In this document: piece by piece, positions 25,008 to 60,352 of the stretch | Position numbering within the stretch: the first letter of the stretch is position 1 | How the letters are laid out: the number at the start of each line of letters is the position of its first letter | Assembly: GCA_963714425.1 (NCBI GenBank) | Contig: CAVQOI010000005.1 | Span: forward strand, 19,218-83,217 | Direction of reading: 5' to 3' | Origin: an uncultured Chloroflexia bacterium | GTDB taxonomy: Bacteria; Chloroflexota; Anaerolineae; Anaerolineales; UBA4823 | Length of the DNA: 64,000 nt | Program-made: the position numbers and the translations under genes | The notes under the pieces: generated by a model | The model's database searches: none | Told to the model about the DNA's origin: nothing | Seen by the model: only the letters and a program-made list of their open reading frames with translations

Positions 25008-25037
25008 GACTGCCTCCTTTGCATTCCATTAAACCTA

Positions 25038-26969: not shown

Positions 26970-27400
26970 GCCTCGCCTCCTACGTAGACCTCATCACCGG
27001 CCACCGATACAGCTAGTGGAGCTAGCGCCTTTGGAGGTGGACCTGAGATTACATGACCGTCCAAAGGATCAAAATATCCTTCATGGCATGGACATACGAT
27101 TTGAGATATTTCTGGATCCCATTTGCAGATGCAGGCGAAGTGCGTACATACTGCTGAATATGCTCGCAGACCCTCAGGGGTATTGACCACCAGGGCTGGA
27201 TAACGCCCAAAACGGACTGTCTTCGCCATCCCGACAGGAAGCTCTGAGACTTTGCTGACCAGCACCGGCTCTGATGGCATCTCCTCCAGATTGGGGGGGT
27301 AGAAGAAGGCAACCACGGGTCCAAATACCGCCGCCAGACCGGTGGCAGAGAGAGCTTTTTTGGCTAAGGAAAGAAATTCGCGGCGTGATATCTGGCTCAT
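26966..27400 (-). CDS. Rieske [2Fe-2S] protein with twin-arginine signal
   Basis: MSQISRREFLSL is a Tat motif. CTHFAC...CPCHEG is the Rieske CxH / CxxH pair. I prefer the start at 27400, which has a GGAGAGGTGA RBS. ATGA overlap with the downstream HdrD-like gene. Confidence 0.85.
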   Translation of the reverse strand: MSQISRREFLSLAKKALSATGLAAVFGPVVAFFYPPNLEEMPSEPVLVSKVSELPVGMAKTVRFGRYPALVVNTPEGLRAYSAVCTHFACICKWDPEISQIVCPCHEGYFDPLDGHVISGPPPKALAPLAVSVAGDEVYVGGEA

Positions 27401-27402
27401 GT

Positions 27403-27804
27403 CTAGCTCACCTCTCCCCAAATCGTTAATGCGATCAGCAGCACCATCCCAACAATGACAGCAATAAGCCGTGTCGTGTAGATTTTTTTGGATGTGTCCG
27501 GCTTACGGTCAAAGAAAGGCCAAAGCGCAATGATTCCGACCCCAATTACGGGTAATACTGCACCAATAGTTTTTGGGATGTATTTCAACAGCTGGTATAG
27601 AGCCAGGAAATACCATTCCGGTTTAACATGAGCGGGAGTGTCCATTGGGTCGGCGGGGTCGCCCAAACCGATCGGGACGAAGAAACCCAGGATTGCTATG
27701 GCAACTATCACGAAGGTAACGCCCAACACAACCCGGAATTCGGTGCGTACGTGATCAGGGTAGAAAGGAATAGATTCTTCTTCGGTCGCGTGGAGTTCAG
27801 CCAT
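27403..27804 (-). CDS. Cytochrome b C-terminal domain (b6f subunit IV-like)
   Basis: 133 aa with three TM segments and the PEWYFLALYQLLKYIP motif. Confidence 0.8.
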   Translation of the reverse strand: MAELHATEEESIPFYPDHVRTEFRVVLGVTFVIVAIAILGFFVPIGLGDPADPMDTPAHVKPEWYFLALYQLLKYIPKTIGAVLPVIGVGIIALWPFFDRKPDTSKKIYTTRLIAVIVGMVLLIALTIWGEVS

Positions 27805-27828
27805 TAATATCTCCTAGAATTTTAGCGC

Positions 27829-28833
27829 TCACAGCGGTTTAGCAACACCTTGACGGCGCACCATCAAGAAATGGGATCCCATAAAGACCAGGGTCATGAT
27901 CGGGATGACGATGACATGCAGACTGTAGAACCGGCTCAGAGTCAAGGCACCCACATCCCAACCCACACGCAGGAAAACAAGCGATAAGTTGCCAATCACT
28001 GGGATTGCTCCGGCGATCTCTGTACCCACCGTGGTTGCCCAAAATGCACGCTGGTCCCAGGGGAGCAGGTAGCCAGTGAAACCGAAGCCCAGGGTCAATA
28101 TAAGCAGGATCACACCACTCACCCAATTAAGCTCCCGAGGAGCCTTGAACGCCCCCATGACAAAGACTCGCAGCATGTGGGCAGTGCACATGACAATCAT
28201 GCCATTAGCTGCCCAATGGTGGATAGCCCGGATGGCAGCCCCAAAGCGCACCTGTGTCTCAATAAAGAGGATGCTTGCGTAAGCAGCCTCAGGTGTGGGT
28301 TTGTAGTAAAAAGCCAGCATGATACCGGTGATAGCCTGGACGACAAAAAGGAATGCGGTAATGCCTCCCAGACAGTACCACCAGCGTAAGGCAAATGTCG
28401 GGACTGGCTTGTTCAGAACTTTGGAAAGCGGATCACGGATGGAGTAGCGTTCATCGACCCACTCGAAGGCACGGAGCTGGAGCGGTTTCCAGGGAGCGCG
28501 GGTGACCCAGGCGCTGGCGCTGCGATAAACTCCCATTACGAACACCAGCCCGACCATTCCGAAGAACGTCCACCGCACCAGTGGTGTCCAGAGACCTTTA
28601 TTCTCTCCGCTGATATGGCAGTGCAAGCACGGGTCTCTTTCCGGCGGCGGGATTGTGGCAGCGGCACTCGGGTCATGAGATACATTCTGAACGATTGACC
28701 AGGCTGGTATGGAGGGGTCTGGCGCGGTCGCCATCGCCTTGCCATGGGCGTTCATGAAGATTGCCCCAGCAAGCCCAAGGACAAGCAAAACAGTGAAGGA
28801 TAGTAGGAGGATGCGCGGGGAACGATTTGTCAT
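27829..28833 (-). CDS. Cytochrome b (b6-like N-terminal domain) with an N-terminal extension carrying a c-type haem motif
   Basis: Cyt b core (WWYCLGGITAFLFVVQAITGIMLAFYY, AIHHWAANGM, GYLLPWDQRAFWATTV, SLHVIVIP). The N-terminal TM helix is followed by CLHCH (CxxCH). Confidence 0.8.
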   Translation of the reverse strand: MTNRSPRILLLSFTVLLVLGLAGAIFMNAHGKAMATAPDPSIPAWSIVQNVSHDPSAAATIPPPERDPCLHCHISGENKGLWTPLVRWTFFGMVGLVFVMGVYRSASAWVTRAPWKPLQLRAFEWVDERYSIRDPLSKVLNKPVPTFALRWWYCLGGITAFLFVVQAITGIMLAFYYKPTPEAAYASILFIETQVRFGAAIRAIHHWAANGMIVMCTAHMLRVFVMGAFKAPRELNWVSGVILLILTLGFGFTGYLLPWDQRAFWATTVGTEIAGAIPVIGNLSLVFLRVGWDVGALTLSRFYSLHVIVIPIMTLVFMGSHFLMVRRQGVAKPL

Positions 28834-29092: not shown

Positions 29093-29139
29093 AAATAAAA
29101 AGTGGGAAATCCGGTCGTATTGCGACCGGATTTCCCACT
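29093..29139 (-). terminator. Strong intrinsic terminator after the response-regulator gene
   Basis: Perfect 17-bp inverted repeat AGTGGGAAATCCGGTCG / CGACCGGATTTCCCACT (29101-29139) with a 5-nt loop. UUUUUAUUU follows on the minus strand. Confidence 0.75.
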
Positions 29140-29173
29140 CTAATTTTAGTTATTCAGCCAGCTATTTGATTAA

Positions 29174-29821
29174 TCAGATCTCGATGATTTTCTTCTGGAT
29201 GGCGTATTTGATCAGGTCGCCACGGTCATGAAGGTCCAATTTGCTCATCAGGTTAGTGCGGTGAGATTGGACCGTCTTGACCGAGATCGTGAGGATGCCG
29301 GCTATCTGTTTGGTGGTGTAGCCTTCCGCGATCAATTGTAAGACTTCATGCTCCCTCGGAGTGAGCCCATCATCAACCTGAGGTTGCAGTTCGCCCCATC
29401 GCAGATAGTCCTCAATAACCATGCGCGTGATGGCGGGCGATAAGACTGCCTCTCCACGATTGACTGTACGGATGGCGCCGATCAGATCGCGCGCAGCAGC
29501 ATCTTTGAGGATATAACCCATAGCTCCACAGGCTAACACCTGGCGGATATATTCTTCGTTTTCGTGCATGGTGAGGATGAGCACCCTGGTTTGGGGATTA
29601 TCGCGCTTGATCTGGCGGGTAGCTTGAAGTCCATTCAACACTGGCATAGCGATATCCATGAGAACAACATCTGGCTCAAGTTGCGAGACCATCTGCACAG
29701 CTATACGACCATCGTCTGCCTCACCCACAACAACCATATCACTCTCACTCTCAAGGAGTGAGCGGATACCATCCCGCAGGATTGTGTGGTCGTCGGCGAT
29801 CAAAATGCGAATCTTTTGCAC
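29174..29821 (-). CDS. NarL/FixJ-family response regulator (REC + LuxR HTH)
   Basis: ILIADDH...DVVLMDIAMP...K in the receiver domain. The C-terminus has LTPREHEVLQLIAEGYTTKQIAGILTISVKTVQSHRTNLMSKL. Confidence 0.85.
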   Translation of the reverse strand: MQKIRILIADDHTILRDGIRSLLESESDMVVVGEADDGRIAVQMVSQLEPDVVLMDIAMPVLNGLQATRQIKRDNPQTRVLILTMHENEEYIRQVLACGAMGYILKDAAARDLIGAIRTVNRGEAVLSPAITRMVIEDYLRWGELQPQVDDGLTPREHEVLQLIAEGYTTKQIAGILTISVKTVQSHRTNLMSKLDLHDRGDLIKYAIQKKIIEI

Positions 29822-29822
29822 G

Positions 29823-30878
29823 TTAGGCTACCTCGCCATTAATCACGGGCATAGTGACCTCGAGGGAAGTTCCCCGTCCGGGTTTTGAGTCCAATCTCAC
29901 ATTGCCACCAACCAGCTCAGCGCGTTCGATAATTCCAACAAGCCCCCACTGCTGCAAACGAACGGCACACGACGAGATTTGTTCCGTATTGAAGCCATGT
30001 CCATCGTCTTCAATGTGCAACCGAATGATATCATCACCTCTTTCCAGAGAGATTTTAGCACTACCAGCATTCGAATGTCTGACGATGTTGGTGACTGCTT
30101 CCTGTGCAATACGAAAGAGTGTGGTTTTGATCTCCTGGGAGAGCTGAGCAAATTCATCGGTGGCATTAAAATCAACACGAATGCCTGCTTCTTCTAATGA
30201 ATTGCGCGCATACCAACGGATTGCAGGTACGAGACCGAGGTCATCGAGAATGGTCGGGCGCAGATCGTGTATGGTCTTGCGCAAATCGCTCAAAGTCACT
30301 TGCGCTATATTGCGTGTATTGGTGAGCTTCTCTCGAATTCCCGAATCCTCTGGGGTCAGCTGATTTTCGAGGTGCTCGAGGTTGATAATCAGCATGCTCA
30401 ACGCTTGTCCTGTGTCGTCATGAAGGCTGCGGGCGATGCGTTTGCGTTCTTCCTCATGCGCATTAATGGCACGTTCTGATAGGTGTCGCAGCTGCCGGTT
30501 TTGGGCCTCAAGCTCAATGACCAATGTGTTGAGACCCGCGGCGATCTGGCTTATGTCTGGCGCTGCAGCCTGTAAGAATTCTGGTGGGATGTAGGTCTCG
30601 CCAGTATGGATTTTTTCAACCGCATTGGACAAGTCGATTAGGGGACGAAGTGCGAGTTTTATCAACCAATAGTTGAGAGTGATCGAAAGCAGCGTACCAA
30701 TGGTGGCAAAGAGGGCGATCAAGCTGATATCTGCAGCCTGGTCGGTCAGCAAGCGAGTCAGCAATGTCCCGCCAATTGCGCCTATAACGATGATTATCGA
30801 ATTACCGATGGCAATTTGCTTGAAGAGGGGTTGGCGGATAAATGGGCGCCGCAGGAAATCGAACAGGGATGAGCGCAT
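29823..30878 (-). CDS. Sensor histidine kinase (2 TM, HAMP, HisKA_3, HATPase_c)
   Basis: H-box ERKRIARSLHDDTGQAL (NarX/DegS type). ATPase N/G boxes (EAVTNIVRHSNA, DDGHGF, GLVGIIERAELVGG). Confidence 0.8.
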   Translation of the reverse strand: MRSSLFDFLRRPFIRQPLFKQIAIGNSIIIVIGAIGGTLLTRLLTDQAADISLIALFATIGTLLSITLNYWLIKLALRPLIDLSNAVEKIHTGETYIPPEFLQAAAPDISQIAAGLNTLVIELEAQNRQLRHLSERAINAHEEERKRIARSLHDDTGQALSMLIINLEHLENQLTPEDSGIREKLTNTRNIAQVTLSDLRKTIHDLRPTILDDLGLVPAIRWYARNSLEEAGIRVDFNATDEFAQLSQEIKTTLFRIAQEAVTNIVRHSNAGSAKISLERGDDIIRLHIEDDGHGFNTEQISSCAVRLQQWGLVGIIERAELVGGNVRLDSKPGRGTSLEVTMPVINGEVA

Positions 30879-31043
30879 ATGACAATAAAGGAGTGTCTAG
30901 GTAGGATAGCTGGTCACCAGGCCCCTACTTTCTTAAAATTATTATACATGAGAAAACCAGTATTCCTGGACAGGTGTGCCACCACAGGGTTGCTTAGGAT
31001 CATGCGCATATTCGTGGTCAAACAATTCAATTCCGCTGATAAT

Positions 31044-31085
31044 GAAAAAGCGGGGTCAGGCAGAGCAATTGAGCTGCTTGACCCC
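31044..31085 (-). terminator. Intrinsic terminator after the Flx/Hdr-like operon
   Basis: The minus strand reads GGGGTCAAGCAG-(10 nt)-CTGCCTGACCCC with one A/C mismatch, followed by GCUUUUUCAUUAUC. It lies 28 nt downstream of the stop at 31113. Confidence 0.5.
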
Positions 31086-31112: not shown

Positions 31113-31967
31113 CTATAGGAAACTTTCTAATAAAGAACCTACCTCAGCCATAGAAAATACAGGACCATCTACACAAACCAGTTTCTCACCCAGGTTGCAG
31201 CGACCGCATTTTCCGATGCCACAATGCATGCGCGCTTCAAGAGTTACATAGTTCTGGTCAGGTGTGAAGCCGAGCTTCTCAACGAGGATCTTGTTCACAA
31301 AGTGAATCATGATGGGCGGGCCGCAAGTAATCGTGATTGCGTTCTCTGGTACGGGTGCGACTCGATCCAGCAAATCCGTAATCAGGCCGACGTGATGGTC
31401 CCAATGGGAATCGGGGACATCTACGGTGAGATGCAATTGGGTGTCGGGAGCAGAGCGCCAGCTTTGGTACTCGTCAGTAAAAACCAGCAAGGAGGGGTGT
31501 CTTGCTGCCCAAAGGATCGTCAGGTGGCCGTAGTCCTGGCGGTTATTCAAGACATGTTGAATAACCGGGCGCAAGGGTGCCCCGCCTATCCCACCACCGA
31601 GGACGACCAGATCTTTGCCTTTAAAATCCTCCATGGGGAACCAATTCCCAAGAGGACCACGCACACCTATGATATCGCCAACACCCAGCTCGTGCATCTC
31701 TGTTGTAACCGATCCCAGGCGTTGAACGGCAAACTCCAGGGGACCACCATTTGGAGCAGAGGCAAAACCAAAAGCTGCCTCACCCACGCCAAATGCAGAT
31801 ACGAACGCGAACTGCCCAGGTTTATAGGAGCGAAAATGCTCGCTCCCTCCGTTTAGCATTTGCACTCCAAAGAGCTTGATCTCGGACCCAAGGTCTCTGG
31901 TGAAAACGAGTTTACCCAGGTAGGGCTTCATCGGATTATCGTGGTTATTTTCCGTATCTCGCGTCAT
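31113..31967 (-). CDS. FAD/NAD(P)-binding oxidoreductase with C-terminal [2Fe-2S] (FlxA / HydG / AsrB-like)
   Basis: Ferredoxin-reductase-type fold (PGQFAFVS, GPLG, VVLGGGIGGAPL). C-terminal CGIGKCGRCNLGEKLVCVDGPVF. Confidence 0.7.
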   Translation of the reverse strand: MTRDTENNHDNPMKPYLGKLVFTRDLGSEIKLFGVQMLNGGSEHFRSYKPGQFAFVSAFGVGEAAFGFASAPNGGPLEFAVQRLGSVTTEMHELGVGDIIGVRGPLGNWFPMEDFKGKDLVVLGGGIGGAPLRPVIQHVLNNRQDYGHLTILWAARHPSLLVFTDEYQSWRSAPDTQLHLTVDVPDSHWDHHVGLITDLLDRVAPVPENAITITCGPPIMIHFVNKILVEKLGFTPDQNYVTLEARMHCGIGKCGRCNLGEKLVCVDGPVFSMAEVGSLLESFL

Positions 31968-32971
31968 GAGGCCACCTCCGCCATGTCAGCAAGCACTTCT
32001 CCAATATCGATATTGACAGGGCACATCTCAATACAGCGTCCACAGCCGGTACATGCCATTGGACCGTACTGCTCTGCATAGTAGTGAAACTTACACATAA
32101 AGCGATTACGCAGACGTTGGCTTGTGGAGGCGCGTGGGTTATGACCCCCAGCAATCCGACGATAGGAGGGACTGGTGCAAGTATCCCAACAGCGAATGCG
32201 CTCGTATTCGGATTTACCGTCACCACCCGTTAGCGCTTCATCGCGCACGATGAAACACCTGCAGGTAGGACATACATAACCACATATGCGGCAGCTCAGA
32301 CATCGCTCTGCCAAACGCTCCCAGTAAGCATCCGTGAAACGCGCAGACCAGCTTATCGTCTGGGGAGATGGGATCTTGGATAGATCCCGCCTATCGATGA
32401 TGGGTGGTACAACCACCTCGCCAGTAACTGGTTTGAGGCGATCTGATAGGAGCTGGTTGCCTTTTTCAGTCACAATTTGGGCGAGGTAACCTCCATCAGT
32501 TTCGGTAAGCATGATGTCCATGTCCTGAGGATCATCTGGAAACCCTCCAACACTGGTACAAAAGCAGGTTTCGCCCATCTCGCGGCATGCGAGGCCAATC
32601 AGGGTTGTATTTTCCCGACGCTTGGCATAGTACGGATCAGATGGCTCCATCAGGAACATCTCATCCAGGATCTTCATCCCCCTGGCGTCACATGGGCGGA
32701 CACCAAAGATGACGACCTCACCTTCAGGCAAGGTCTCGGTAAGCTGAAGCTCTTGCCCGTTTATGTGGATATGTAGCAGCGCCTCCGTTGCAGGGAAGAA
32801 CACTTCTTTTATGGATAGTGCAGGGCGCGAAAACTTCCAGGCGATTTCCGACGTGGTTCCCACCTGGCGGTAACGAAGGACACCTTCATCCCGGGTGGGA
32901 GCAACAAGATTCGATTCTTGTGCTAAGTTATCGAGTATTGCGGAGAGATCTGCTTGGGATAGGAACTTCAT
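31964..32971 (-). CDS. 4Fe-4S dicluster protein (FlxB/C, HydB, AsrA-like)
   Basis: CLSCRICGYVCPTCRCF and CTGCGRCIEMCPVNI. 4-nt overlaps with both neighbours. Confidence 0.65.
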   Translation of the reverse strand: MKFLSQADLSAILDNLAQESNLVAPTRDEGVLRYRQVGTTSEIAWKFSRPALSIKEVFFPATEALLHIHINGQELQLTETLPEGEVVIFGVRPCDARGMKILDEMFLMEPSDPYYAKRRENTTLIGLACREMGETCFCTSVGGFPDDPQDMDIMLTETDGGYLAQIVTEKGNQLLSDRLKPVTGEVVVPPIIDRRDLSKIPSPQTISWSARFTDAYWERLAERCLSCRICGYVCPTCRCFIVRDEALTGGDGKSEYERIRCWDTCTSPSYRRIAGGHNPRASTSQRLRNRFMCKFHYYAEQYGPMACTGCGRCIEMCPVNIDIGEVLADMAEVAS

Positions 32972-34329
32972 GGCAGCTGCTCCTCTCCGTTCAGGATTGT
33001 GACGAATGGTGATGGGACTGGCTCCAGACCGGCACGGTGCCCGAATACTGTCTGCATCTCCTGGATGAGTTTCCCGTTGAGCAAGCTAATCGGGATCTCC
33101 ATCGGACACACACGCTCGCACTCGTGGCAATCCACGCAACGACCAGCCAGATGATATGCTCTTCCCAGGTGGAAGGTGCGTTTCTCATTTGCATTGATGC
33201 CCATGCCTACCCAGAGAGAGTCATCTCGCTCGTACAAGCAGGTGGGGCAGGCACACATCGGACAGACCTGGCGACAAGCATAGCAGCGGATACATCGATC
33301 GAACTGCGACAGCCAATATTCCATACGCTCTGGAGCTGACTTAGCATCCAGCTCGGAAAGCCGCGGGGGAATCACAAGCTGAGGATGCACTTCTGGGGCA
33401 TCGCCGACCAGGGTGTCGTATACAATGGGTATACGCTGATCACATTCCTGGCATCGCTCCTGGAGACTGCAATTGTCGCTGTTCACTTCTCGCATCCCCT
33501 GGCAGGCCACTCCAATCACATGAACCTGACCCCGCTCAAACCGATTTTCAGCGAGCAACACGTTTATCGCCCGGCTGTCACACGGTTTTGCCACGATGGC
33601 GATGGGTTTTTTGGGTTCTGATCCTGCCTTTGTCCCCGGAGGGTAGAGGGTCGAGTGCAGGTAAGTCGTCAGGTTATGGGAGCAGTCCTGGTTCCAAACT
33701 AGGCGCTGGACCTCTGCCGGATTGCGGACAAACGCTGGGCGTGTGCGCCCATGCGTACCAGACTCATAGCCTATTACAACGCTCACTTCGCCTGTGGAAA
33801 GCAACTGGCGCGCTGTATCCTGGATCAACACGGCCACATGGGATTCATCAGGAGGCGCAACCAGTCTGGCTGTCGAAGTCTCTGTATTGAAATTAGTTCT
33901 TACTGGATCGTGGTCTCGCTGGCTTAATCTCCATTTCACTGGTCCAAGTGAACGCACCTTGTCTGTGAACTCGTTTACGATGCGACTGAAGCGCTCACCT
34001 TCAGAAGCGGAAACGTAATCGAGCCGCAGCCTTTCGGGCTCCAGCCCGGTAAAAGCCATGAGCGATTGGAGAATTGGCAGGCGCTTGGCTGTGCGATGAT
34101 TGCCAGTGTCATAATGGCATTCACCGACGTGGCAGGCGAGGACAAGCACACCATCTGCCCCTTGGTCAAAGGTACGCATGATTATCTCGGGAGCGACACG
34201 TCCAGAACAGGGGACGCGCACAGCACGCACATTTGCTGGAGATTTCAGCCGAGCGATACCAGCTGTATCAGCGCCTGTATAGCTACACCAGGTACATAGA
34301 AATGCAATGATCTTAGGTTCGTATGGCAT
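32968..34329 (-). CDS. MvhD/FlxD-domain protein fused to an Fe-S (2x[4Fe-4S]) module
   Basis: The N-terminus KIIAFLCTWCSYTGADTAG...VRVPCSGRVAPEIIMRTF..GADGVLVLACHVGECHY is an MvhD/FlpD domain. The C-terminus has CIRCYACRQVCPMCACPTC and CVDCHECERVCP. Confidence 0.7.
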   Translation of the reverse strand: MPYEPKIIAFLCTWCSYTGADTAGIARLKSPANVRAVRVPCSGRVAPEIIMRTFDQGADGVLVLACHVGECHYDTGNHRTAKRLPILQSLMAFTGLEPERLRLDYVSASEGERFSRIVNEFTDKVRSLGPVKWRLSQRDHDPVRTNFNTETSTARLVAPPDESHVAVLIQDTARQLLSTGEVSVVIGYESGTHGRTRPAFVRNPAEVQRLVWNQDCSHNLTTYLHSTLYPPGTKAGSEPKKPIAIVAKPCDSRAINVLLAENRFERGQVHVIGVACQGMREVNSDNCSLQERCQECDQRIPIVYDTLVGDAPEVHPQLVIPPRLSELDAKSAPERMEYWLSQFDRCIRCYACRQVCPMCACPTCLYERDDSLWVGMGINANEKRTFHLGRAYHLAGRCVDCHECERVCPMEIPISLLNGKLIQEMQTVFGHRAGLEPVPSPFVTILNGEEQLP

Positions 34330-34340
34330 TCCACGACCTC

Positions 34341-37300
34341 CTAAGTACTTACGATTCCCGGGACTATCGGCATGGAAGTGGCAGGCACATCCATATCCAG
34401 AGCTCCGAGCATCTCATTAATGATCTGGCGATCATCGTAGTGGATCAGGCTCATGGCTTTATTTGGACAAGCTGCAGCGCAAGTACCACAGCCTTTGCAC
34501 AGGAAGCCTTTCACTACAGCGACTCCATCCTGAAGCTCGACCGCCCCATAAGGGCAAGCGTAGGTGCATTGCCCGCAACCCGCACAGCGGACTTGATTGA
34601 CAACAGCAATGGATGGATCCAAAGCGATCGTACCCTGGTCTATCAGCGAGAGAGCAGCAGCGGCTGCGGCTCCTGCCTGGGCGACACTATCGGGGATATC
34701 CTTCGGGCTCTGGCAGGCGCCGGCCAGGTAGATCCCTTCGTTCGCCGTTTCAACGGGAGCGAGCTTGGGGTGGCGCTCGAGAAAGAAACCATCGCGGCTG
34801 CGGCTAAGACCAAAAGTGTTGGCGACGCGGGAGGAATCATCGCGCGGCTCGAAACCGGTAGCGAGGATAACCATATCCACTTCGACATGGTCTGGCTGGT
34901 TATAGAAACTCTCATCCCAGGAGACACGTAGCTTTCCATTCACACGCTCGACGCTCCGTACTCTCCCGTGGTAGAAGTTGACACCCTTCTTTCGTGTGCG
35001 GTTATAGAACTCCTCATAATCTTTGCCGAAGGTGCGCATATCTCGATAAACTTCGTGGACTTCGGCGTCCACATAGTCATGTACCAGCTGGGCAAATTTC
35101 AAGGAATACATGCAACATGCACGCGAGCAATACTCATTGGTTTCCGTGTCGCGGCTACCAATACAATGCACAATGGCGACACTTTTCGGAGGCTTGCCAT
35201 CGGTAAGCAGCACTTTTCCACTGGTTGGACCGCTGGCGTTGATCAGTCGCTCAAATTCCATCGCAGAGACAATGTTGTCAAGCTTGCCATAGCCAAGTTC
35301 GGGAATGCGGGCAGGATCGAAATCCTTAAAGCCAGTCGCCAGAATGATCGTACCGACCTTAATGTCGATGGTCTCATCCTGCATATTGTGATCGATTGCG
35401 CCGCGCTCGCACGCTGCCAGGCACTCCAGGCACTCTGAACAGATGCCACAGCGCAAACATCGCTCAGCCTCGCTCAGCGCCTCTTCCTCGCTCATGGTCA
35501 GGTCGACCTCGCGGAAATTGTGAACGCGTTCTTGCACGGGGATGCTTCGTATGGGGACACGCCCAGCCAAGGAGGCCTCCCCGTTGTCAAACTTTTGCTC
35601 GATCTCTTCCTGGGTCAACTGGACTGTAGGCAGCTTGCGTGGTTCCTGAAGGCCGTTTTCGCCGCGCAGATAACGGTCAATACTGCGTGCGACGCGGTGA
35701 CCTTCGCCGATGGCATCGACAACAAAGAAAGTAACGCCGCGATGGACGTCGCCAGCGACAAATACACCTCGTTGTGTGGTCATCATATCCGCATTGCTCT
35801 GGATGCCCACGGGGTAGCGTGTATTGATGCTGCCATCGGGTGGCAGGAAGGAGAAATCCGGTCCCTGACCAATTGCCCATATGACCAGGTCGGCGGGAAG
35901 AATATGCTCGGTGCCAGGGATTTCATCCATATCCGGACGCCCCTGCTTGAAGCCTCGGAAGTTGACCTCGACACTGCGCACACCAAGAATCTTATCTTCT
36001 TTCACCACAATTTCTTTGAAGGTCCTGGAGGGGCATAAGATCACGCCTTCCTCTTCAGCAACACCGACCTCCCAGTCGAAACCAGGCATCTCGCCGCGCG
36101 GTTCCAAACAAGCCATACGTACCTCATCCGCGCCTAGACGCAGGACAGTTCGGGCAGTGTCTAGGGCGACATTTCCGCCACCCAGGACCACGACTTTCTT
36201 ACCGCTTAAGTCGATCTTCTCACCGAGTGTAACCTGGCGAAGCAGTTTCAAGCTGAGCCAGTTGTCCGGATGGTTCGAGTTACGGATAGGCAGCTTTTTG
36301 GCGGAATGAGCGCCAGTCGCAACAAGAACGGAGTGATAGCCGTTCTCGAGTAGGGAGGGGATGTCATCTACCCAGGCGTTCAGGCGAAGATCGACGCCCT
36401 CCTCAATTACCTGCTTGATCTCCCAATCGAGCATATCTGTTGGCAGCCGGTGAGGGGGGATACCGACGCGCATCATCCCGCCTGCAACGGGGAGTGCATC
36501 GAAGACGGTAACCTGGTGTCCTAATCGCACCAAGTCAAGAGCGGCAGTAAGCCCTGCTGGACCTGCCCCGATAATGGCGACCTTTTTCCCAGATTGTGGG
36601 TGGTTGTGCTGGAACGGGGTGCCAACCAAACTTTTATCACGCATCTGGGGTAATTCATGCCTGTGCTCGTACGCCCAGTCTGAGACGAAGCGCTTTAAGC
36701 CCATGATGTTCACGGATTCATCATACTTGCCTCGGCTGCACATATCCTCGCAGTGGTGATTGCAGACCCGCCCGCAGACAGATGGGAAAGGATGCTCCCT
36801 GCGAATCGCCCAATAGGCGTCTGCATAGCGTTTTTGACCAATGAGAGCGATATATCCCTGCGCGCGCTGGTCGGTAGGGCAGGCACTCCTACAAGGAGCA
36901 ACGCCTAGTTTTTGGATGGCGTAAGCCCCCGGAACTGCCTGGGCGGAGAATCGGTAAGATGCTTTGCGTGTGCTGAGGCCCATATCGAACGGGTTGGAGA
37001 TGTCAACAGGGCAAACTTCTGCGCATTTCCCGCATCCAGTGCATTGGGATTCATCGATATAACGTGATTTGCGGTGCACGCGCACATCGAAATTCCCAAC
37101 ATAACCAGAAACCGATTGGACCTCGCTGTAGCTCAGTAAGCTGATGTTTTCGTGGCGTCCAACGGACACCATTTTTGGTGTGAGTATTCAAGCCGCGCAG
37201 TCAAGCGTGGGGAAGGTCTTATATAGCTGAGCCATATGCCCACCGATGCTTGGCTCACGCTCTACAAGGTATACGTGCTTCCCAGCGTCTGCGAGCCTGA

Positions 37301-37781
37301 GGGCAGCCTCGATCCCAGCAATGCCTCCACCAACCACTAGAGTAGATGGGAGCATGTCAACATTGCGCTGCTCCAGCGGCTCGTGATAGCGTACTCGCCG
37401 GACAGCAGCTTCGACCAAACTCATGGCTTTATTGGTCGCCATATCCCGGTCGTCGATCACCCAGGAGCAATGCTCACGGATATTTGCCATCTGGAAGAAG
37501 AAAGGATTGAGTCCGCCTTCCATGCAGGCTTTTCTAAAGGTCGGCTCATGCATCAACGGGGTGCAAGAAGCCACCACAACCCGGTTCAAACCGTACTCAC
37601 GAATATCCTCTTTGATCAGATCCTGGCCCGGATCGGAGCACATATAGGTGTAATCTTTAGCTAGAATGACACCATCCAGAGTCCGGGCGTGGTCAGCGAC
37701 CGACTTCACGTCCACCGTGGCGGCAATATTGGTGCCGCAATGACAGACGTACACGCCGGTTCTGATTTTGGAGAGGTTCAT
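34341..37781 (-). CDS. hdrA: HdrA-like flavoprotein with in-frame UGA (predicted Sec198) and an inserted GltD/NfnB-like NAD(P)H module; read-through product 1146 aa
   Basis: Track ORFs 37188..37781 and 34341..37172 are in the same frame, separated only by TGA (37188-37190): TLDCAA-TGA-ILTPKMVSVGRHENI. The N-terminus has VVGGGIAGIEAAL (FAD). An insert at about 35460-36930 has CRSACP...CGRVCNHHCEDMC plus IIGAGPAGLTAA and VVLGGGNVALD, which is GltD-like. Confidence 0.7.
37153..37171 (-). promoter_or_regulatory. Candidate bacterial SECIS hairpin for the long hdrA
   Basis: The minus strand reads U GGUGUCC GUU GGACGCC A, an 8-bp stem with a 3-nt G-containing loop, starting 16 nt after the UGA. Confidence 0.5.
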
Positions 37782-39820
37782 GCCGGCACCTCCTCTAAAG
37801 GCATTGTGCGCAATGAGTTGAGCAACGCGCCTTCTATTTCAGCCATAACCTGCTCATAAGTAAACCCATGCTGGAGAGCAGCGCCAGCCGGACAAGCGCC
37901 CGCACATGCGCCGCATCCCTTGCAAAGAACTTCATTGATGAGAGCCACCTGCCTCCCTTCAAAGTCAACCATCTCGATGGCACCGTATGGGCAAAGCCCC
38001 TCGCAGGTGCGGCAGCCACCGCATTTTTCAGGGATTACGTAAGTAGTAAATGGCTCCAATGTGACATGCCCAGCATCCAGCATGGATAAGACACCCGCAG
38101 CAGCGGCACCACCCTGGGCAACGCTATCGGGGATATCCTTAGGTCCCTGGCAGGTCCCCGCAAGGAATACTCCATCGGTGGCAGTTTCCACGGGGGCTAG
38201 CTTGGGATGCTTCTCTAAGAAGTACCCGTCGGGGCTTAGACTAATGCCGAAAGTCTTGGCTACCTCAAGCTGGTCGCTATGCGGTTCGAGCCCAGTGCTA
38301 AGCACCACCATATCCACCAGGACATCATCAGGCTGCCCGGTAAAAATATCTATGGTTGAGACTTTCAGGTGCCCATTCTGCTGCGAGACATGAATTTTCT
38401 CTTCGAAGCGATGGAAATGAACACCATTTTGGGCAGCGCGAGTGTAGAAACCTTCATAATCCTTACCGAAGGTACGCATATCCCGGTAAAACTGGTAGAC
38501 TTCCGCATCCACGTAATGACGGATAAGCTCTGCCAGTTTGAGTGAGTACATACAGCAAACCCGCGAGCAGTATTCATGATGTTGCAGATCGCGGCTGCCG
38601 ACACAATGCAGGATTGCGATCCGCTCAGGCTTGCGCCCGTCTTTGAGCACCACTTGACCATTTGTGGGTCCACCGGTATTGATCATGCGTTCGAATTCCA
38701 TGCCGGAGACTACATTGTCGAGCTCTTTATAACCATATTGGGGAGCTTTGTGGGGGTCGAAATCTTGAAATCCAGTTGCCAGGACAATGCCACCGACTTC
38801 GACATCTATTAATTCATCCTTTTGCTCAAAGTCGATCGCCTGGCGTTGGCAGAACTTCTCGCAGGCACGACATTTGCCTCGTAGGAAATATGCACAGTTC
38901 TCAGTATCGATTATCGGTACGCGCGGCACAGCTTGGGCAAAGGGGAAGTAGATCGCCGGGCGATTGCCTAATCCCATATCAAATTCGGAGGGGATCTTTT
39001 TCCATGGGCATTTTTCAACGCATGCGCCGCAGCCAGTGCAATTTTCTTCGTTTACATAGCGCGCTTTTTTACGGATCTTCACGTTGAAATTTCCCACATA
39101 TCCCGATACCGATTCAACCTCACTGTTGCTCAGCAGAGTGATGTTTTCGTGGCGTCCCACGGACACCATCTTCGGAGTGAGAATTCAAGCCGCGCAGTCT
39201 AAGGTTGGAAATGTTTTGTACAACTGCGCCATGTGCCCGCCGATACTGGGCTGGCGCTCAACTAGATAGACATGCTTACCTGCGTCCGCCATGCGAAGGG
39301 CAGCTTCAATACCGGCGATCCCGCCACCAACGACTAACGCTGCCTGCTTGACGGTAACCTGCCGGCTGGTGAGCTCTTGGTTTAAGGCTACCCGGCGCAC
39401 GGCTGCAGACACGAGGGCTTTTGCTTTCTGGGTTGCCAGGACCATATCATCGGAAACCCAGGAGCAATGCTCGCGTATGTTTGTCATCTGGAAGAGAAAT
39501 GGGTTGAGCCCTCCCTCAGCGCATGCCCGCCGAAAGGTGGTCTCGTGCATCAGGGGTGAGCATGAGGCAACCACAACTCGATCTAAGCCCTCATTTTGTA
39601 TATCATCCTTGATGAGAGCCTGACCTGGATCAGAACACATGTAGGCGTAGTGGCGCGAGACTGCAACACCGTCGAGCGTGGATGCAAAATCAGCGACTGC
39701 AGCAACATCCACCATGCCTGCGATGTTTGTACCGCAGTGGCAGACATAAACGCCGATCTTTTCCCCGCAACCAGCGCGCAGAGAGGGTGGTCCGGTTTGG
39801 GAGCTCTGCTTTGGCTTCAT
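37778..39820 (-). CDS. hdrA: HdrA-like flavoprotein with in-frame UGA (predicted Sec212); read-through product 680 aa
   Basis: Track ORFs 39185..39820 and 37778..39169 share one frame, separated only by TGA (39185-39187): TLDCAA-TGA-ILTPKMVSVGRHENI. It has VVGGGIAGIEAAL, four ferredoxin-type Cys motifs, and an AAGGAGG RBS upstream of the ATG at 39820. Confidence 0.7.
39150..39168 (-). promoter_or_regulatory. Candidate bacterial SECIS hairpin for the short hdrA
   Basis: The minus strand reads U GGUGUCC GUG GGACGCC A. Stem and spacing (16 nt after the UGA) are identical to the paralog; only the loop base differs. Confidence 0.5.
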
Positions 39821-39909
39821 CCGGCTGACCTCCTTAAATGGGTATTGTGTTGTTGGTCATAATTGGGCATTGGTGCACCGTTAACTCGCTACAATAATTC
39901 TTAACGATG

Positions 39910-39918
39910 ATTATACCA
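39910..39918 (-). promoter_or_regulatory. Candidate extended -10 promoter (TGGTATAAT) for the hdrA/flx-like operon
   Basis: The minus strand reads TGGTATAAT about 90 nt upstream of the ATG at 39820, in an AT-rich divergent region. No clear -35 box. Confidence 0.3.
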
Positions 39919-40110
39919 AAGCTTGTGAAAAAAAGCACTAATTACTTTAGTTATTTATCTTTTTACCAATTGGAAATCAAGACATCTGGTCTCAACATCC
40001 AACCAGTAGCATGTCGTTTCGATGAGAAGCTAGATAAACATTCATCCTTTCTTTAGAGTGCGTCGCAGCAAGTGCGGTAAAATTAATTGACACCTATGCC
40101 AAGGAAAATT

Positions 40111-41502
40111 ATGAAGCTTCGATTATATGACACCTATACACGCAGTTTGAGGGAGTTCGAGCCGATCAAGGCGCCGGAAGTGGGACTTTACACTTGCGGG
40201 CCGACAGTATACGACTACGCCCATATCGGCAATTTGCGATCCTACATTTTTGAGGATATCTTACGGCGAGTCCTGATGCTGAACGGCTACTCAGTCAGGC
40301 ATGTGATGAACATCACGGATGTAGGACATCTGACCTCAGACGCTGATGAGGGGGAAGATCGCATGGAGAAGGGCTCCCAGCGAACGGGATTGTCTGCCTG
40401 GGAAATTGCTGAGCTGTACACTGAAGAATTCAAGACGGATCTCAACCATCTCAATATTTACCTGCCCACGGTCTGGTGCCGGGCTACCGATCACATCCCA
40501 GAGCAAATCGATTTGATCCAATGCATTGAAGACAAAGGTTTTACCTACCGTACTTCTGATGGAATATATTTCGATACTTCGAAGCTAGAAGACTATGGAT
40601 ATCTCGGCAGACTGGATATCGAAGGATTACAAGCTGGGGCACGCATCGATATCGGTGAGAAACGCAACCTGACGGATTTTGCATTATGGAAATTTAGCCC
40701 GTCTGACAGCACACGCCAGATGGAATGGGAGAGTCCCTGGGGAGTGGGGTTTCCCGGTTGGCATATTGAATGCTCTGCGATGTCGGCGAAATACCTCAGC
40801 CCCTGGTTTGACATCCACTGCGGCGGGGAAGACCACATCAATGTGCATCACACCAATGAGATTGCACAAACCCAAGCCTGCTACGGTACAAGACTTGCGA
40901 ATTTCTGGATGCATGGGTATTTCTTGCAGATCGACGAAGCGCGCATGGGCAAGTCCGAAGGCAATTTCTTAAGGGTGCAGACGCTGATTGATAAGGGTTA
41001 CGATCCACTCGTATGGCGTCTATTCTGCTTAAACGCTCACTACCGAACGAAATTAAATTTCACCTGGGATGGCGTGGATGGCGCAGCGATCTCGTTGGAA
41101 AGGCTTCGAAATGCTGTCTATGAATGGGGAGATGCCGGCGACGCTGATGAAGAATTTATTGACAAATTTGTTGAAACAGTCAATGAGGATTTAAATATGC
41201 CACGTGCGATGGCTATAACCTGGGAGCTGGTCAAGAGCGACCTGCCTCCCGCCATGAAAAAAGCGACGATTCTCTATTTCGACCGGGTACTGGGTCTGCG
41301 CCTGGGAGAATGGCAACCGAAAGAGGAGCGCGTACCCGCGGAGATCCAGTTGATGGTAAATGAGCGGCAAACTGCACGCCAGGAGAAACGCTGGGCAGAC
41401 GCTGACGCACTGCGCGACCAGGTCATCGCAGCCGGATATGAGGTGGAGGACACGCCACAAGGGCCGCGCGTGAAGCAGAGAAGAATGAAGTTTGAAGGAT
41501 AA
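40111..41502 (+). CDS. cysS: Cysteine--tRNA ligase
   Basis: HIGN (HIGH) and RMGKSEGN (KMSKS) motifs, and WHIECSAM for the zinc site. I prefer ATG 40111 (MKLRLYDTYT), preceded by AAGGA. The track ORF begins at a TTG at 40087. Confidence 0.9.
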   Translation: MKLRLYDTYTRSLREFEPIKAPEVGLYTCGPTVYDYAHIGNLRSYIFEDILRRVLMLNGYSVRHVMNITDVGHLTSDADEGEDRMEKGSQRTGLSAWEIAELYTEEFKTDLNHLNIYLPTVWCRATDHIPEQIDLIQCIEDKGFTYRTSDGIYFDTSKLEDYGYLGRLDIEGLQAGARIDIGEKRNLTDFALWKFSPSDSTRQMEWESPWGVGFPGWHIECSAMSAKYLSPWFDIHCGGEDHINVHHTNEIAQTQACYGTRLANFWMHGYFLQIDEARMGKSEGNFLRVQTLIDKGYDPLVWRLFCLNAHYRTKLNFTWDGVDGAAISLERLRNAVYEWGDAGDADEEFIDKFVETVNEDLNMPRAMAITWELVKSDLPPAMKKATILYFDRVLGLRLGEWQPKEERVPAEIQLMVNERQTARQEKRWADADALRDQVIAAGYEVEDTPQGPRVKQRRMKFEG

Positions 41503-41562: not shown

Positions 41563-42336
41563 ATGAAAATAGCGATCACTGGTAAAGGTGGGGTTGGAAA
41601 GACAACACTGGCGGCGCTCTTGGCGCAGTCCTATGCAGATGCAGGCCGTCAGGTACTGGCAGTTGACGCTGACCCATCACCGTGCCTGGCTGGTGCCTTG
41701 GGATTTCCAGACACTCTCCGCACACGCCTGCACCCAATTTCTGAGATGGATGAGCTGATATTTGAACGGACTGGTGCAAAACCAGGCAGCATTGGAGGGT
41801 TTTTTACATTAAACCCGCAAGTGGATGATATCCCTGAGCGTTTTAGCATTGCAAATCGAAATGTAAGTCTGCTGGAAATGGGCGCGGTGGATATAGGTGG
41901 CACTGGGTGCATCTGTCCCGAAAGCGCATTACTTAAGACGCTCTTTACCCACCTGCTCTTTCGTAAAGAAGATGTTCTCATTCTTGATATGTACGCGGGT
42001 GTGGAACATCTGGGCAGGGCGACGGTGGATTTCGTGGACGCCATGCTGGTTGTCGTGGAACCGACGCGACGCAGCCTGGGCACCGCAGCTCAGATCAAAA
42101 AGCTGGCGAACGATATCGGCTTAACACAGCTCTGGCTTGTAGGGAACAAGGTCCGAAGTCCGGAGGAAGTGACATTTCTCGAGACAGAAACACCCGGTCT
42201 ACCCGTCCTGGGCTTTATGCCAGCTGATATGGCGGTTCAGGAGGCAGACCGGTTGGGCATCGCGGTTTATGACTATGTGCCATCATTGCGGCAGGCAGCT
42301 GAACAGATGGCAGCAATGCTGGTAGAGACGGTTTAA
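41563..42336 (+). CDS. cooC: CooC-type (MinD/ParA-fold) nickel-insertion ATPase
   Basis: MKIAITGKGGVGKTT deviant Walker A, DADPS, a CxC metal motif (GCICPE), and VGNKV. Confidence 0.7.
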   Translation: MKIAITGKGGVGKTTLAALLAQSYADAGRQVLAVDADPSPCLAGALGFPDTLRTRLHPISEMDELIFERTGAKPGSIGGFFTLNPQVDDIPERFSIANRNVSLLEMGAVDIGGTGCICPESALLKTLFTHLLFRKEDVLILDMYAGVEHLGRATVDFVDAMLVVVEPTRRSLGTAAQIKKLANDIGLTQLWLVGNKVRSPEEVTFLETETPGLPVLGFMPADMAVQEADRLGIAVYDYVPSLRQAAEQMAAMLVETV

Positions 42337-42352
42337 TGATCGAGGTGAAAGT

Positions 42353-43138
42353 ATGTCTACAACAATAGCTTTAGCGGGAAAAGGGGGTGTGGGTAAGACG
42401 ACAATTGCCGGCATGGTAGTTAAATATCTTGTTAGACAAAAGGATGGAGCTGTGATTGCCATCGATGCAGACCCAAGTAGCAATTTAAATATGGTCTTGG
42501 GTTTGGATCTGGAATGGACGGTTGGGGATATCCGCGAGGATATGCTCTCACAAGTGAAAGACTCATTGACCACTGGCGGGGCAGCCATGGGCAGCATGCC
42601 CGGAGGCGTTTCTAAGCGGGATTATCTGGATTACCAGATTCGCTCTTCACTGGCGGAAGGCGATCATGTAGACTTGATCGCTATGGGGCGATCGGAGGGA
42701 CCGGGGTGTTACTGCGCTGTAAATCACAACTTGAGGGAAGTGATTGACACCATCAGCAAGAACTACAGCTACGTGGTGATCGATAACGAGGCAGGCATGG
42801 AACACCTTAGCCGCAGGACGACAAGGGACGTGGATCACCTTCTCATCGTATCTGACCCGACGCAGCGCGGCATTATGGCAGCACAGCGTATTAGTGATCT
42901 GCGGAATGAGCTGGATGTCCAGGTGAAAAACGCCTACCTAATACTGAACCGCCTGAACGGCAATATGCCTGAGCCATTACGACAGCGCATTGAAACGCTA
43001 GATATACCCCTTTTAGGTATTGTGCCGGCTGACGGCGATATCGCAGAATATGAGTTTAGCGGGCGACCTCTGGTCGAAATGAAGGAAGATGCTCCAATTT
43101 ATAGAGCTGTAGCTGGGATGATGGAGAAGATCTTATAG
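42353..43138 (+). CDS. Second CooC/AcsF-type ATPase paralog
   Basis: IALAGKGGVGKTT, IDADPSSNL, CxC (GCYCAVN) and VIDNEAGMEHL. Confidence 0.65.
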   Translation: MSTTIALAGKGGVGKTTIAGMVVKYLVRQKDGAVIAIDADPSSNLNMVLGLDLEWTVGDIREDMLSQVKDSLTTGGAAMGSMPGGVSKRDYLDYQIRSSLAEGDHVDLIAMGRSEGPGCYCAVNHNLREVIDTISKNYSYVVIDNEAGMEHLSRRTTRDVDHLLIVSDPTQRGIMAAQRISDLRNELDVQVKNAYLILNRLNGNMPEPLRQRIETLDIPLLGIVPADGDIAEYEFSGRPLVEMKEDAPIYRAVAGMMEKIL

Positions 43139-60276: not shown

Positions 60277-60352
60277 TGGGGTGCCTGAGGAGATTTGAAC
60301 TCCCAACCACCTGATCCACAGTCAGGTGCTCTGCCATTGAGCTACAGGCACC
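60277..60352 (-). tRNA. tRNA-His (GTG anticodon) with genomically encoded G-1 and CCA
   Basis: Manual cloverleaf: G(-1) GTGCCTG TA GCTC AATGGCA GAGC A CCTGA CTGTGGA TCAGG TGGTT GGGAG TTCAAAT CTCCT CAGGCAC C CCA. Confidence 0.9.

Follow-up and report, generated by a model that had tools for sequence, protein, structure and literature searches.

The 64,000-nucleotide stretch of DNA analysed here (the window) is part of contig CAVQOI010000005.1 of an uncultured Anaerolineales bacterium of the phylum Chloroflexota (assembly GCA_963714425.1), and it encodes a cluster of genes related to HdrA-based electron-bifurcating systems. On the minus strand, from 39820 to 31113, translation of the open reading frames (ORFs) gives five co-directional, tightly packed genes in the order g1-g2-g3-g4-g5, with the following predicted products:

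39820..37778, minus strand: g1, type I HdrA selenoprotein of 680 codons with an in-frame TGA at 39187..39185 (translation, Pfam, NCBIfam)
37781..34341, minus strand: g2, HdrL (type III HdrA) of 1146 codons with an in-frame TGA at 37190..37188 (translation, Pfam, NCBIfam)
34329..32968, minus strand: g3, MvhD fused to an FdhB/FrhB-like iron-sulfur (FeS) protein, 453 amino acids (Pfam, PDB matches, Foldseek)
32971..31964, minus strand: g4, FeS subunit of the AsrA, sulfhydrogenase-beta (HydB) or FlxB-C kind, 335 amino acids (Pfam, NCBIfam, PDB match)
31967..31113, minus strand: g5, FAD/NAD(P)H/[2Fe-2S] subunit of the AsrB, sulfhydrogenase-gamma (HydG) or FlxA kind, 284 amino acids (Pfam, NCBIfam, PDB match)

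The stop and start codons of g1/g2, g3/g4 and g4/g5 share ATGA overlaps, the stop codon of g2 (TAG) is separated from the ATG of g3 by an 11-nt gap (GAGGTCGTGGA), and a GGAGG-type Shine-Dalgarno sequence precedes all five starts (AAGGAGG at 39835..39829 upstream of g1). By this layout the five genes are predicted to form one operon, as an earlier reading of the letters alone (the sequence-only reading) had described it, junction by junction; its domain assignments for the five proteins likewise agree with the Pfam and NCBIfam results. That reading had also bounded the operon by a promoter region and a terminator, for which the following signals can be read from the sequence:

39918..39910, minus strand: candidate extended -10 element TGGTATAAT, located 90 nt before the start of g1 and recognised by inspection of the sequence
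31085..31041, minus strand: terminator-like hairpin GGGGTCA...TGACCCC followed by GCUUUUUCAUU, 28 nt past the g5 stop codon, imperfect and GC-rich

The first lies in a divergent intergenic region of 266 nt between g1 and cysS. A generic sigma-70 promoter scan of the region upstream of g1 gave no site at 39918..39910 and counts no higher than those of shuffled sequences. The letters directly 3' of the hairpin (31085..31052) are GCTTTTTCATT, and the fold has a computed energy of -26.7 kcal/mol with a folding z-score of only -1.6; the generic terminator scan, with counts not above shuffles either, missed this hairpin because of its interior loop. Since the generic scans give nothing above chance, the extended -10 element is a candidate only, and the promoter and terminator signals, although legible together with the AAGGAGG, are plausible rather than proven. 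Rfam and tRNA scans of the window found nothing tied to the operon.

The g1 protein aligns with a solved methanogen HdrA (5odc_A) from end to end (residues 21-666, E = 5e-214). It consists of a thioredoxin-reductase-like FAD domain, an FeS domain at the N terminus and two ferredoxin domains, one inserted and one C-terminal. Every cluster-binding Cys motif is kept, as are the motifs MEFERM and CCMYSLK. Equivalents of Lys409 and Glu356, proposed as marks of bifurcating HdrA (PMC12054007), occur in both g1 and g2, together with the HA4-type cluster motif C-x13-C-x3-CC. Thus the features that define bifurcating type I HdrA (FAD domain, K409/E356, FeS domains and C-x(12-13)-C-x3-CC) are all present in g1, and the same motifs are found in g2 outside its insertion. 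By homology, then, both proteins are predicted to have retained all HdrA cofactors as well as the residues associated with flavin-based bifurcation.

The g2 protein, which matches HdrA among PDB sequences, is a paralogue of g1, 61% identical to it in the g1/g2 alignment outside an insertion of about 490 amino acids. This insertion separates the two cluster motifs of the inserted ferredoxin domain, is flanked by CTGCGKCAEVCP and CLRCGICSECLEC, and makes up a complete GltD/NfnB-like module with a Fer4_20 domain (2x[4Fe-4S]) and two Rossmann folds, one for FAD and one for NAD(P)H (Pfam Fer4_20 and Pyr_redox_2 at residues 294-693). Its best solved homologues, 9bov_A, 9n5u_A, 8oh5_C, 5jca_L and 4ylf_B (E = 1e-58 to 1e-82), are the NADPH-handling GltD-like subunits of the Stn, NfnABC and NfnAB transhydrogenases. 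A GltD/NfnB-like module inside the inserted ferredoxin domain is what distinguishes HdrL, and on its domain content g2 is classed as HdrL, also called type III HdrA or HdrA-NfnB fusion. The NADPH 2'-phosphate loop of NfnB, GltD and Stn, YRR(T/S)xxEMP, does not occur in g2, where the corresponding sequence is ACLEPRGEMP (residues about 560-575, window about 36100..36060). Among orthologous five-gene clusters (L001-L057; L numbers denote the loci compared) the loop has three subtypes, ACLEPRGEMP, IFRKPKGEMT and VC---RGMRA, and in L016 and L045 two HdrL genes of different loop subtype stand in one cluster. The acidic residue in the g2 loop hints at a shift away from NADPH without proving it.

In both g1 and g2 the in-frame UGA aligns with Cys197 of the Methanothermococcus thermolithotrophicus HdrA (5ODC). 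Of 99 homologous sites compared across related loci, 77 have TGA and 22 have TGC or TGT, and the reading frames on either side of the TGA are intact and highly conserved. Each UGA is followed, from +17 to +35, by a hairpin of 8 bp with a 3-nt loop that resembles a selenocysteine insertion sequence (SECIS), identified by folding and by comparison of TGA with Cys loci:

39168..39150, minus strand: SECIS-like hairpin of g1, UGGUGUCC-GUG-GGACGCCA, +17 to +35 after the UGA
37171..37153, minus strand: SECIS-like hairpin of g2, UGGUGUCC-GUU-GGACGCCA

The hairpin is found in essentially all TGA versions and is degraded in Cys versions, with a mean minimum free energy of -12.3 versus -7.1 kcal/mol (Mann-Whitney p = 1e-12). 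Selenocysteine (Sec) at the in-frame UGA of g1 and g2, which the sequence-only reading had put forward for both HdrA genes, is therefore well supported as a prediction, both by the position of the TGA and by the conserved, TGA-specific hairpin. Nearly all public g2 homologues (P0004-P0120 in our set) are annotated as proteins of 930-945 amino acids, cut at the Sec UGA by gene callers. Chloroflexota HdrA and HdrL selenoproteins are systematically split in public annotation, and surveys consequently under-count and mis-annotate them.

The g3 protein begins with an MvhD [2Fe-2S] domain (residues 1-132; Pfam FlpD, 9e-48), continues with an FdhB/FrhB-like domain and ends with a ferredoxin domain for 2x[4Fe-4S]. 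Invariant Cys residues in alignment A1 are 12, 15, 41, 66 and 71, then 250, 276, 293 and 296, and those at 346-364 and 398-408. PDB sequence matches (5odc_D, 7bkb_E, 8rvu_E, 9t1s_M) include FdhB and ElpB of the Fdh-Hdr and Elp-Hdr complexes, and Pfam FrhB_FdhB_C is weak in g3 of the window and above the gathering cut-off in the homologues P0123 and P0205. An AlphaFold2 model of moderate-to-low confidence (predicted local distance difference test score, pLDDT, 63.9) gave Foldseek matches to MvhD, FdhB, ElpB, FrhB and HCAR. The description of g3 as an MvhD-FeS fusion in the sequence-only reading can thus be kept and made more specific: the FeS part is FdhB/FrhB-like by PDB matches, by Pfam in homologues and by Foldseek.

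The g4 protein matches Pfam Fer4_22, the NCBIfam models ShyB, HydB and AsrA, and chain 9nez_B (E = 3e-48), and g5 matches Pfam NAD_binding_1 and DHODB_Fe-S_bind, NCBIfam and chain 9nez_C (E = 3e-47); the similarity of g5 to NfnA (4ylf_A) is at 2e-14. By these matches g4 and g5 are assigned as homologues of the beta and gamma subunits of Pyrococcus furiosus sulfhydrogenase I and as members of the AsrA/AsrB family. The putative nucleotide-specificity motif of g5, ILWAAR, is invariant; its 'AR' pair is common to sulfhydrogenase I gamma and NfnA, and the motif is therefore not diagnostic. Judged by homology, g5, g4 and the FdhB-like part of g3 would form an NAD(P)H-linked electron-input arm ending in the MvhD [2Fe-2S] cluster of g3, and this arm would take the place of FdhAB-MvhD, ElpABC or MvhAGD in the Hdr complexes of methanogens.

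To place the operon among related genomes, we used a profile of g3 against one genome per species, which returned 80 loci, and examined the neighbourhood up to 10 kb either side of g3. By tblastn synteny the order g1-g2-g3-g4-g5 is found in about 40 genomes of uncultured Anaerolineae/Chloroflexota (L001 included), the closest named relatives being metagenome-assembled genomes of Anaerolineales and Anaerolineaceae. Flanks differ between the genomes that carry the cluster. The recurrent neighbours in 38 five-gene loci are an InhA-like MAM protein, a cupin, ClpB/C, a universal stress protein (Usp) and other unrelated proteins, and no redox partner is among them. In L084, cysS and two CbiA-type ATPase genes stand directly beside an operon with a response regulator and Rieske genes, which is the arrangement of the window without the five genes and without the histidine kinase; the cluster is therefore present or absent as a unit. 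Conserved order, unrelated flanks and the lack of a recurrent redox neighbour in these loci thus indicate a self-sufficient cassette, and we take them as pointing to a five-gene cluster that would behave autonomously.

Two kinds of neighbouring gene may be described further. The InhA-like MAM-domain protein, of about 700 amino acids (for example L034:13173-15266), is the immediate same-strand neighbour in 14 of the 38 five-gene loci, upstream of g1 or downstream of g5; it is absent from the window and has no obvious functional link. The two tandem CbiA/MinD/ArsA-like P-loop ATPase genes adjoin cysS in the window (41563..43138, plus strand, and 40087..41502). The same pair stands beside methylenetetrahydrofolate reductase, DUF3786 and formate-tetrahydrofolate ligase genes in L085 and beside the ligase gene in L087, which hints at a link of the pair to one-carbon metabolism or metalloenzyme maturation.

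The defining absence concerns HdrB and HdrC. A CCG/HdrC profile and a CCG regular expression were run over all ORFs of the window and of loci L001-L081, and neither found an HdrB- or HdrC-like ORF beside any five-gene cluster. The absence of HdrBC beside the cluster is a conserved property of this cluster type. Nor does the operon, or any Pfam-annotated gene of the window, contain a [NiFe] alpha or delta subunit, a siroheme AsrC or a molybdopterin/formate dehydrogenase (FDH) subunit. The sequence-only reading had found neither HdrB/HdrC nor hydrogenase nor formate dehydrogenase in the operon, and had named a membrane HdrD-like protein as the sole CCG protein of the window; profile, regular expression and Pfam bear out both statements, the sole CCG protein being a membrane NarI-FeS-CCG protein at 26969..25038. 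The comparison across related genomes that it had proposed gave the same picture. Among the loci with HdrL (46), 41 are without and 5 are with a CCG protein in the neighbourhood of g3, compared with 8 and 19, respectively, among the loci without HdrL, and in two of the five HdrL loci the CCG gene is the Rieske-operon HdrD-like gene.

Relatives of g3 also occur in other layouts. In two Gemmatimonadota loci (L047, L050) and one Anaerolineaceae locus (L059) they belong to clusters of the form hdrC-hdrB(CCG)-hdrA-mvhD~fdhB-fdhA(Sec), the canonical Fdh-MvhD-HdrABC layout. Aligned with this scaffold, g4 and g5 would stand for FdhA, and HdrL for HdrCB. A third layout in Anaerolineae, fdhB-like-g4-g5-hdrA-mvhD, is without HdrL; some of these clusters have a soluble HdrD-like gene or HdrCB and some have neither. 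Such a sister cluster lies directly downstream of a group-3b-like [NiFe] hydrogenase operon in L075:655-6803, and also in L046, L048, L073, L076 and L043. The hydrogenase operon comprises HydB'/HydG', Oxidored_q6, NiFeSe_Hases and HycI genes, with a response regulator and a GAF histidine kinase, and HypF beyond.

The best explanation of these homologies is that the five genes would encode a soluble multi-flavin, multi-FeS complex built on the HdrA (g1)/HdrL (g2) pair. In canonical HdrA the low-potential electron exits via the shuttle cluster HA3 to the clusters HA5/HA6, which belong to the inserted ferredoxin domain with its ferredoxin/polyferredoxin site, and the high-potential electron exits via HA4 to HdrC and HdrB (PMC12350162). 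We tentatively suspect, by analogy, that the present complex is self-contained and links NAD(P)H and ferredoxin in a bi- or confurcating manner, with the pyridine-nucleotide site of the GltD insertion as the third substrate site and an Nfn-like net reaction. In this scenario, NAD(P)H would be oxidised at g5, and electrons would pass from the [2Fe-2S] cluster of g5 to the clusters of g4, on to the FdhB-like clusters and the MvhD [2Fe-2S] cluster of g3, and from there to the HdrA FAD. Ferredoxin would dock at the free inserted ferredoxin domain of g1, while the inserted ferredoxin domain of g2 would be wired to the GltD-type FAD/NAD(P) site. HdrL would then stand in place of HdrBC, and a CCG (HdrB/D) subunit would not be needed, because the g2 insertion would bind a pyridine nucleotide as the third substrate. 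An Nfn/Stn-type net reaction would result, in which one site handles NAD(P)H and the other NAD(P)+ and ferredoxin also takes part, and it could balance fermentative redox pools. In structure predictions of type III HdrA from archaea, GltD covers the site of ferredoxin reduction, and NAD(H) is its proposed substrate (PMC12054007), and ANME-1 HdrA-NfnB fusions have been described in the same way (PMC9012536). The sequence-only reading saw no acceptor module in the operon, but it overlooked the GltD/NfnB-like insertion of g2 and with it a probable second pyridine-nucleotide site, a reasonable candidate for the acceptor in a gene that takes the place of hdrC-hdrB in related clusters.

Several observations weigh against the Nfn-like scheme. 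The 41 HdrL loci without a CCG protein are one clade rather than 41 independent events, so that their anticorrelation with HdrBC describes a pattern and carries no statistical weight. Four clusters of the third layout (L048, L073, L075 and L076) have neither HdrL nor a CCG protein within the stretch examined, and hence the absence of HdrBC is not always paired with HdrL. The distant loci L061, L065 and L077 have HdrL together with HdrBC, and Syntrophobacter fumaroxidans also combines the two (PMC5947623). The 64-kb window being the scope of the search in this genome, HdrBC could be encoded elsewhere. The HA4 'HdrC-port' motif, the canonical exit to HdrC, is conserved here without an identified partner. 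With ACLEPRGEMP in place of YRR(T/S)xxEMP and three loop subtypes, the NAD(P)H specificity predicted from the loop is ambiguous, and we found no co-variation of the HdrL loop subtype with the g5 ILWAAR motif, which would have supported two different nucleotides.

Comparison with known systems helps to define what is unusual in the cluster. FlxABCD-HdrABC of Desulfovibrio vulgaris is reportedly an NADH-linked system, proposed to carry out flavin-based bifurcation. The likeness to FlxABCD-HdrABC and MvhD-HdrA systems noted in the sequence-only reading holds for the parts at the level of domain kinds, with the defining HdrBC missing: on their domains g5 would be of the FlxA kind, g4 and the C-terminal part of g3 of the FlxB/C kind, and the N-terminal part of g3 the counterpart of FlxD (MvhD), and HdrA is encoded in the same operon. 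Unlike FlxABCD-HdrABC, however, the cluster is without HdrB/HdrC (CCG) genes, has two HdrA paralogues, one with a GltD insertion and both with Sec, and has its FlxD counterpart fused to an FdhB-like protein, with the gene order reversed.

Closer in the design of g2 are HdrL1-3 of Desulfobacterium autotrophicum (Strittmatter et al. 2009, PMC2702500), HdrABC/HdrL of S. fumaroxidans (PMC5947623) and archaeal type III HdrA (PMC12054007). In these proteins, too, a GltD/NfnB-like module of about 500 amino acids interrupts the inserted ferredoxin domain, an mvhD gene comes next, and some members have Sec at the same position; a tandem with a plain hdrA is likewise known from one D. autotrophicum locus (PMC2702500) and from ANME-1 (PMC9012536). 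In contrast to the HdrL systems, the present cluster adds a sulfhydrogenase beta/gamma-like NAD(P)H module as well as the MvhD-FdhB fusion and lacks partners of the HdrBC, DsrABC, Fdh and Mvh kinds, its host belongs to the Anaerolineae (Chloroflexota), and its NADPH loop is not of the YRR type. With the FdhAB-MvhD-HdrABC (7BKB) and ElpABC-HdrABC (8RVU, PMC12350162) complexes of methanogens the cluster shares an HdrA about 60% identical, MvhD, a predicted FdhB/ElpB-like subunit between input module and HdrA, and probably the general plan of an exchangeable electron-donor arm that feeds the bifurcating FAD. It differs from them in that g4 and g5 take the position of FdhA/ElpA, HdrBC is missing and a second HdrA (HdrL) is present.

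The transhydrogenases NfnAB, Stn and NfnABC (4YRY, 5JCA, 8OH5, 9N5U, 9BOV) resemble the cluster in having a GltD-like FAD and 2 [4Fe-4S] module and an NfnA/PyrK-family subunit (g5 here), and two pyridine-nucleotide sites plus a ferredoxin site would be expected in the cluster complex as well. In the cluster, however, the scaffold is HdrA-based, the YRR loop is not conserved, and g5, far more similar to sulfhydrogenase gamma, has a HydB-like subunit as its partner. Finally, in the beta/gamma module of P. furiosus sulfhydrogenase I (9NEZ) and in AsrAB, clear homologues of g4 and g5, electrons pass between NAD(P)H and FeS clusters; unlike in sulfhydrogenase I and AsrABC, no [NiFe] alpha/delta or AsrC gene is present in the operon or the window, although the sister Anaerolineae cluster L075 does adjoin a group-3b-like hydrogenase. 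The combination of HdrA, HdrL, MvhD~FdhB and HydB/HydG-like subunits with two Sec in Anaerolineae was not found described in the literature searched, which for the cluster in this class gave only generic mentions of hdr genes.

Downstream of the five-gene cluster, at 28833..23976 on the minus strand, lies an operon for the N-terminal and C-terminal parts of cytochrome b, a Rieske protein, the membrane fusion of a NarI-like part with 2x[4Fe-4S] and 2xCCG (HdrD/DsrMK-like), encoded about 4 kb from the cluster, and a 343-aa protein. The HdrD-like protein has 4686 homologues at E <= 1e-30, and the seven Anaerolineae loci that we examined carry the same five genes: cytochrome b, cytochrome b-C, Rieske, HdrD-like and a protein of about 345 amino acids, homologues of which show weak Fer4 matches in L085, L087 and L088 and a faint FrhB_FdhB_C match in L087. 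It is unusual for a Rieske/cytochrome b complex to include an HdrD-like subunit. In six of the seven loci (not L085) the gene immediately before the operon encodes a LuxR-type response regulator, accompanied in four of the six by a HisKA_3 kinase, and the two-component system at 30878..29174 of the window thus belongs to the Rieske operon and not to the Hdr cluster. Between the response-regulator and cytochrome b genes (29141..29099) is a perfect 19-bp bidirectional terminator-like hairpin.

Linkage of the Rieske operon to the Hdr cluster is occasional, not systematic. Apart from the window, the five-gene cluster lies near it in only 2 of 38 other loci (L008 and L013, there on the opposite strand), and five of the seven Rieske loci have no HdrA cluster nearby, the remaining two (L082 and L089) having a cluster of the hdrA-mvhD-fdhA type with its upstream end cut off. 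These counts reject the Rieske operon with its HdrD-like gene as an obligate neighbour, and the suggestion of the sequence-only reading that the HdrD-like gene might emerge as a partner from neighbourhood comparison was not sustained.

The same counts bear on the first alternative, which we consider unlikely though deserving of serious attention: that the complex is an NAD(P)H:disulfide/ferredoxin bifurcase like FlxABCD-HdrABC whose CCG module is encoded elsewhere, by orphan hdrBC or hdrD genes or by the membrane NarI-FeS-CCG protein. The high-potential acceptor would then be a thiol/disulfide carrier or, via the membrane protein, the quinone pool. The HA4-type motif, which feeds HdrC in canonical complexes, is kept in g1 and g2, and the HdrD-like protein has an HdrC-like FeS domain and two CCG domains; it is encoded close to the cluster in the window and in L008 and L013, both gene sets are widespread in Anaerolineae, and sister clusters in that class (L043, L046, L062, L066, L071 and L079) do carry soluble HdrD-like or HdrCB genes. 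Against this stand the 41 of 46 HdrL loci with no CCG gene in the neighbourhood of g3, the rarity and opposite orientation of the Rieske operon near other five-gene clusters, the Rieske loci with no HdrA cluster or with one of another type, and the two-component system between the gene sets, which travels with the Rieske operon. In addition, membrane enzymes of the HdrDE and DsrMK types are not known to bind HdrA.

A related and more far-reaching idea, which we regard as a long shot, is that the soluble complex docks via the vacant HdrC port (HA4) onto the cytoplasmic FeS/CCG domains of the membrane NarI-HdrD-like subunit, giving a quinone-linked, Qmo-like supercomplex. If true, it would connect NAD(P)H and ferredoxin with the quinone pool of the membrane and with the Rieske/cytochrome b complex, and no such architecture has been described.

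More probable than docking, yet doubtful, is a non-bifurcating NAD(P)H:ferredoxin (or NADH:NADP+) oxidoreductase in which the HdrA flavins and clusters would be a mere wire that links ferredoxin with two pyridine-nucleotide sites. Modules of the GltD-like and AsrB-like kinds serve generically to convert between carriers of two electrons and carriers of one, and HdrA2 alone couples F420H2 to ferredoxin, according to a report cited in PMC12054007. However, K409 and E356 are kept in both paralogues, and two full HdrA units, Sec and more than 20 predicted clusters would be uneconomical for a simple wire. Moreover, the reduction of ferredoxin by NADH alone is endergonic.

We also considered whether g3, like ElpB and FdhB, has retained in its FdhB/FrhB-like domain a flavin together with a site for a hydride carrier, either F420 or a related deazaflavin, so that the complex would use a third soluble cofactor with g4/g5 as an alternative input. 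The similarity of g3 to FdhB, ElpB and FrhB by Foldseek and sequence and the FrhB_FdhB_C matches above cut-off in homologues favour this, and in the Elp-Hdr complex F420H2 is oxidised by ElpB, which feeds Hdr by way of a homologue of MvhD (PMC12350162). It seems improbable, marginally more so than the docked supercomplex, because g3 matches the N-terminal (flavin) region of FrhB only marginally (E = 0.19), the g3 model is of low confidence, g4 and g5 already supply an input module at the FdhA position, and no F420 biosynthesis genes are among the Pfam-annotated genes of the window (about three quarters of its ORFs). Last, a cluster made non-functional by decaying pseudogenes, for which it could be said that gene callers split both genes at the TGA and that most database entries end at about 940 amino acids, is rejected as next to impossible by the TGA exactly at the Cys codon of homologues, the conserved SECIS hairpin that accompanies it and the intact, conserved frames on both sides.

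Reports of HdrA clusters that lack HdrBC, and especially of HdrL, go back to 2009, and none of these systems has been characterised biochemically; with many such clusters already known to specialists, the present one is a moderate surprise. Its useful traits are that it is compact, experimentally tractable, moves as a unit and is widespread: dozens of species of Anaerolineae carry it, and related proteins number in the thousands in metagenomes. Members of this class abound in digesters, sediments and aquifers, and little is understood of their energy metabolism. The only recognisable substrate sites of the predicted complex are two pyridine-nucleotide sites and one ferredoxin-type site, which makes it a clean test case for whether HdrA flavins can bifurcate without a disulfide acceptor and for the role of the GltD insertion. 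If the tentative Nfn-like reading is true, the complex would represent a further, HdrA-based solution for coupling NADH, NADPH and ferredoxin.

Elsewhere in the window, a 347-aa protein with several 4Fe-4S ferredoxin-type domains is encoded about 10 kb upstream of the operon (50886..49846, minus strand). An aldehyde dehydrogenase (Pfam Aldedh) at 44719..43192 on the minus strand is divided between two overlapping ORFs that match profile positions 5-188 and 186-460; a frameshift, a sequencing error or pseudogene status probably accounts for the split. The RNA genes recovered by the scans are a transfer-messenger RNA (tmRNA) gene at 18827..19224 on the minus strand, with the tag peptide AKSTNYAALPLAA, and a tRNA-His gene at 60277..60351, also on the minus strand.

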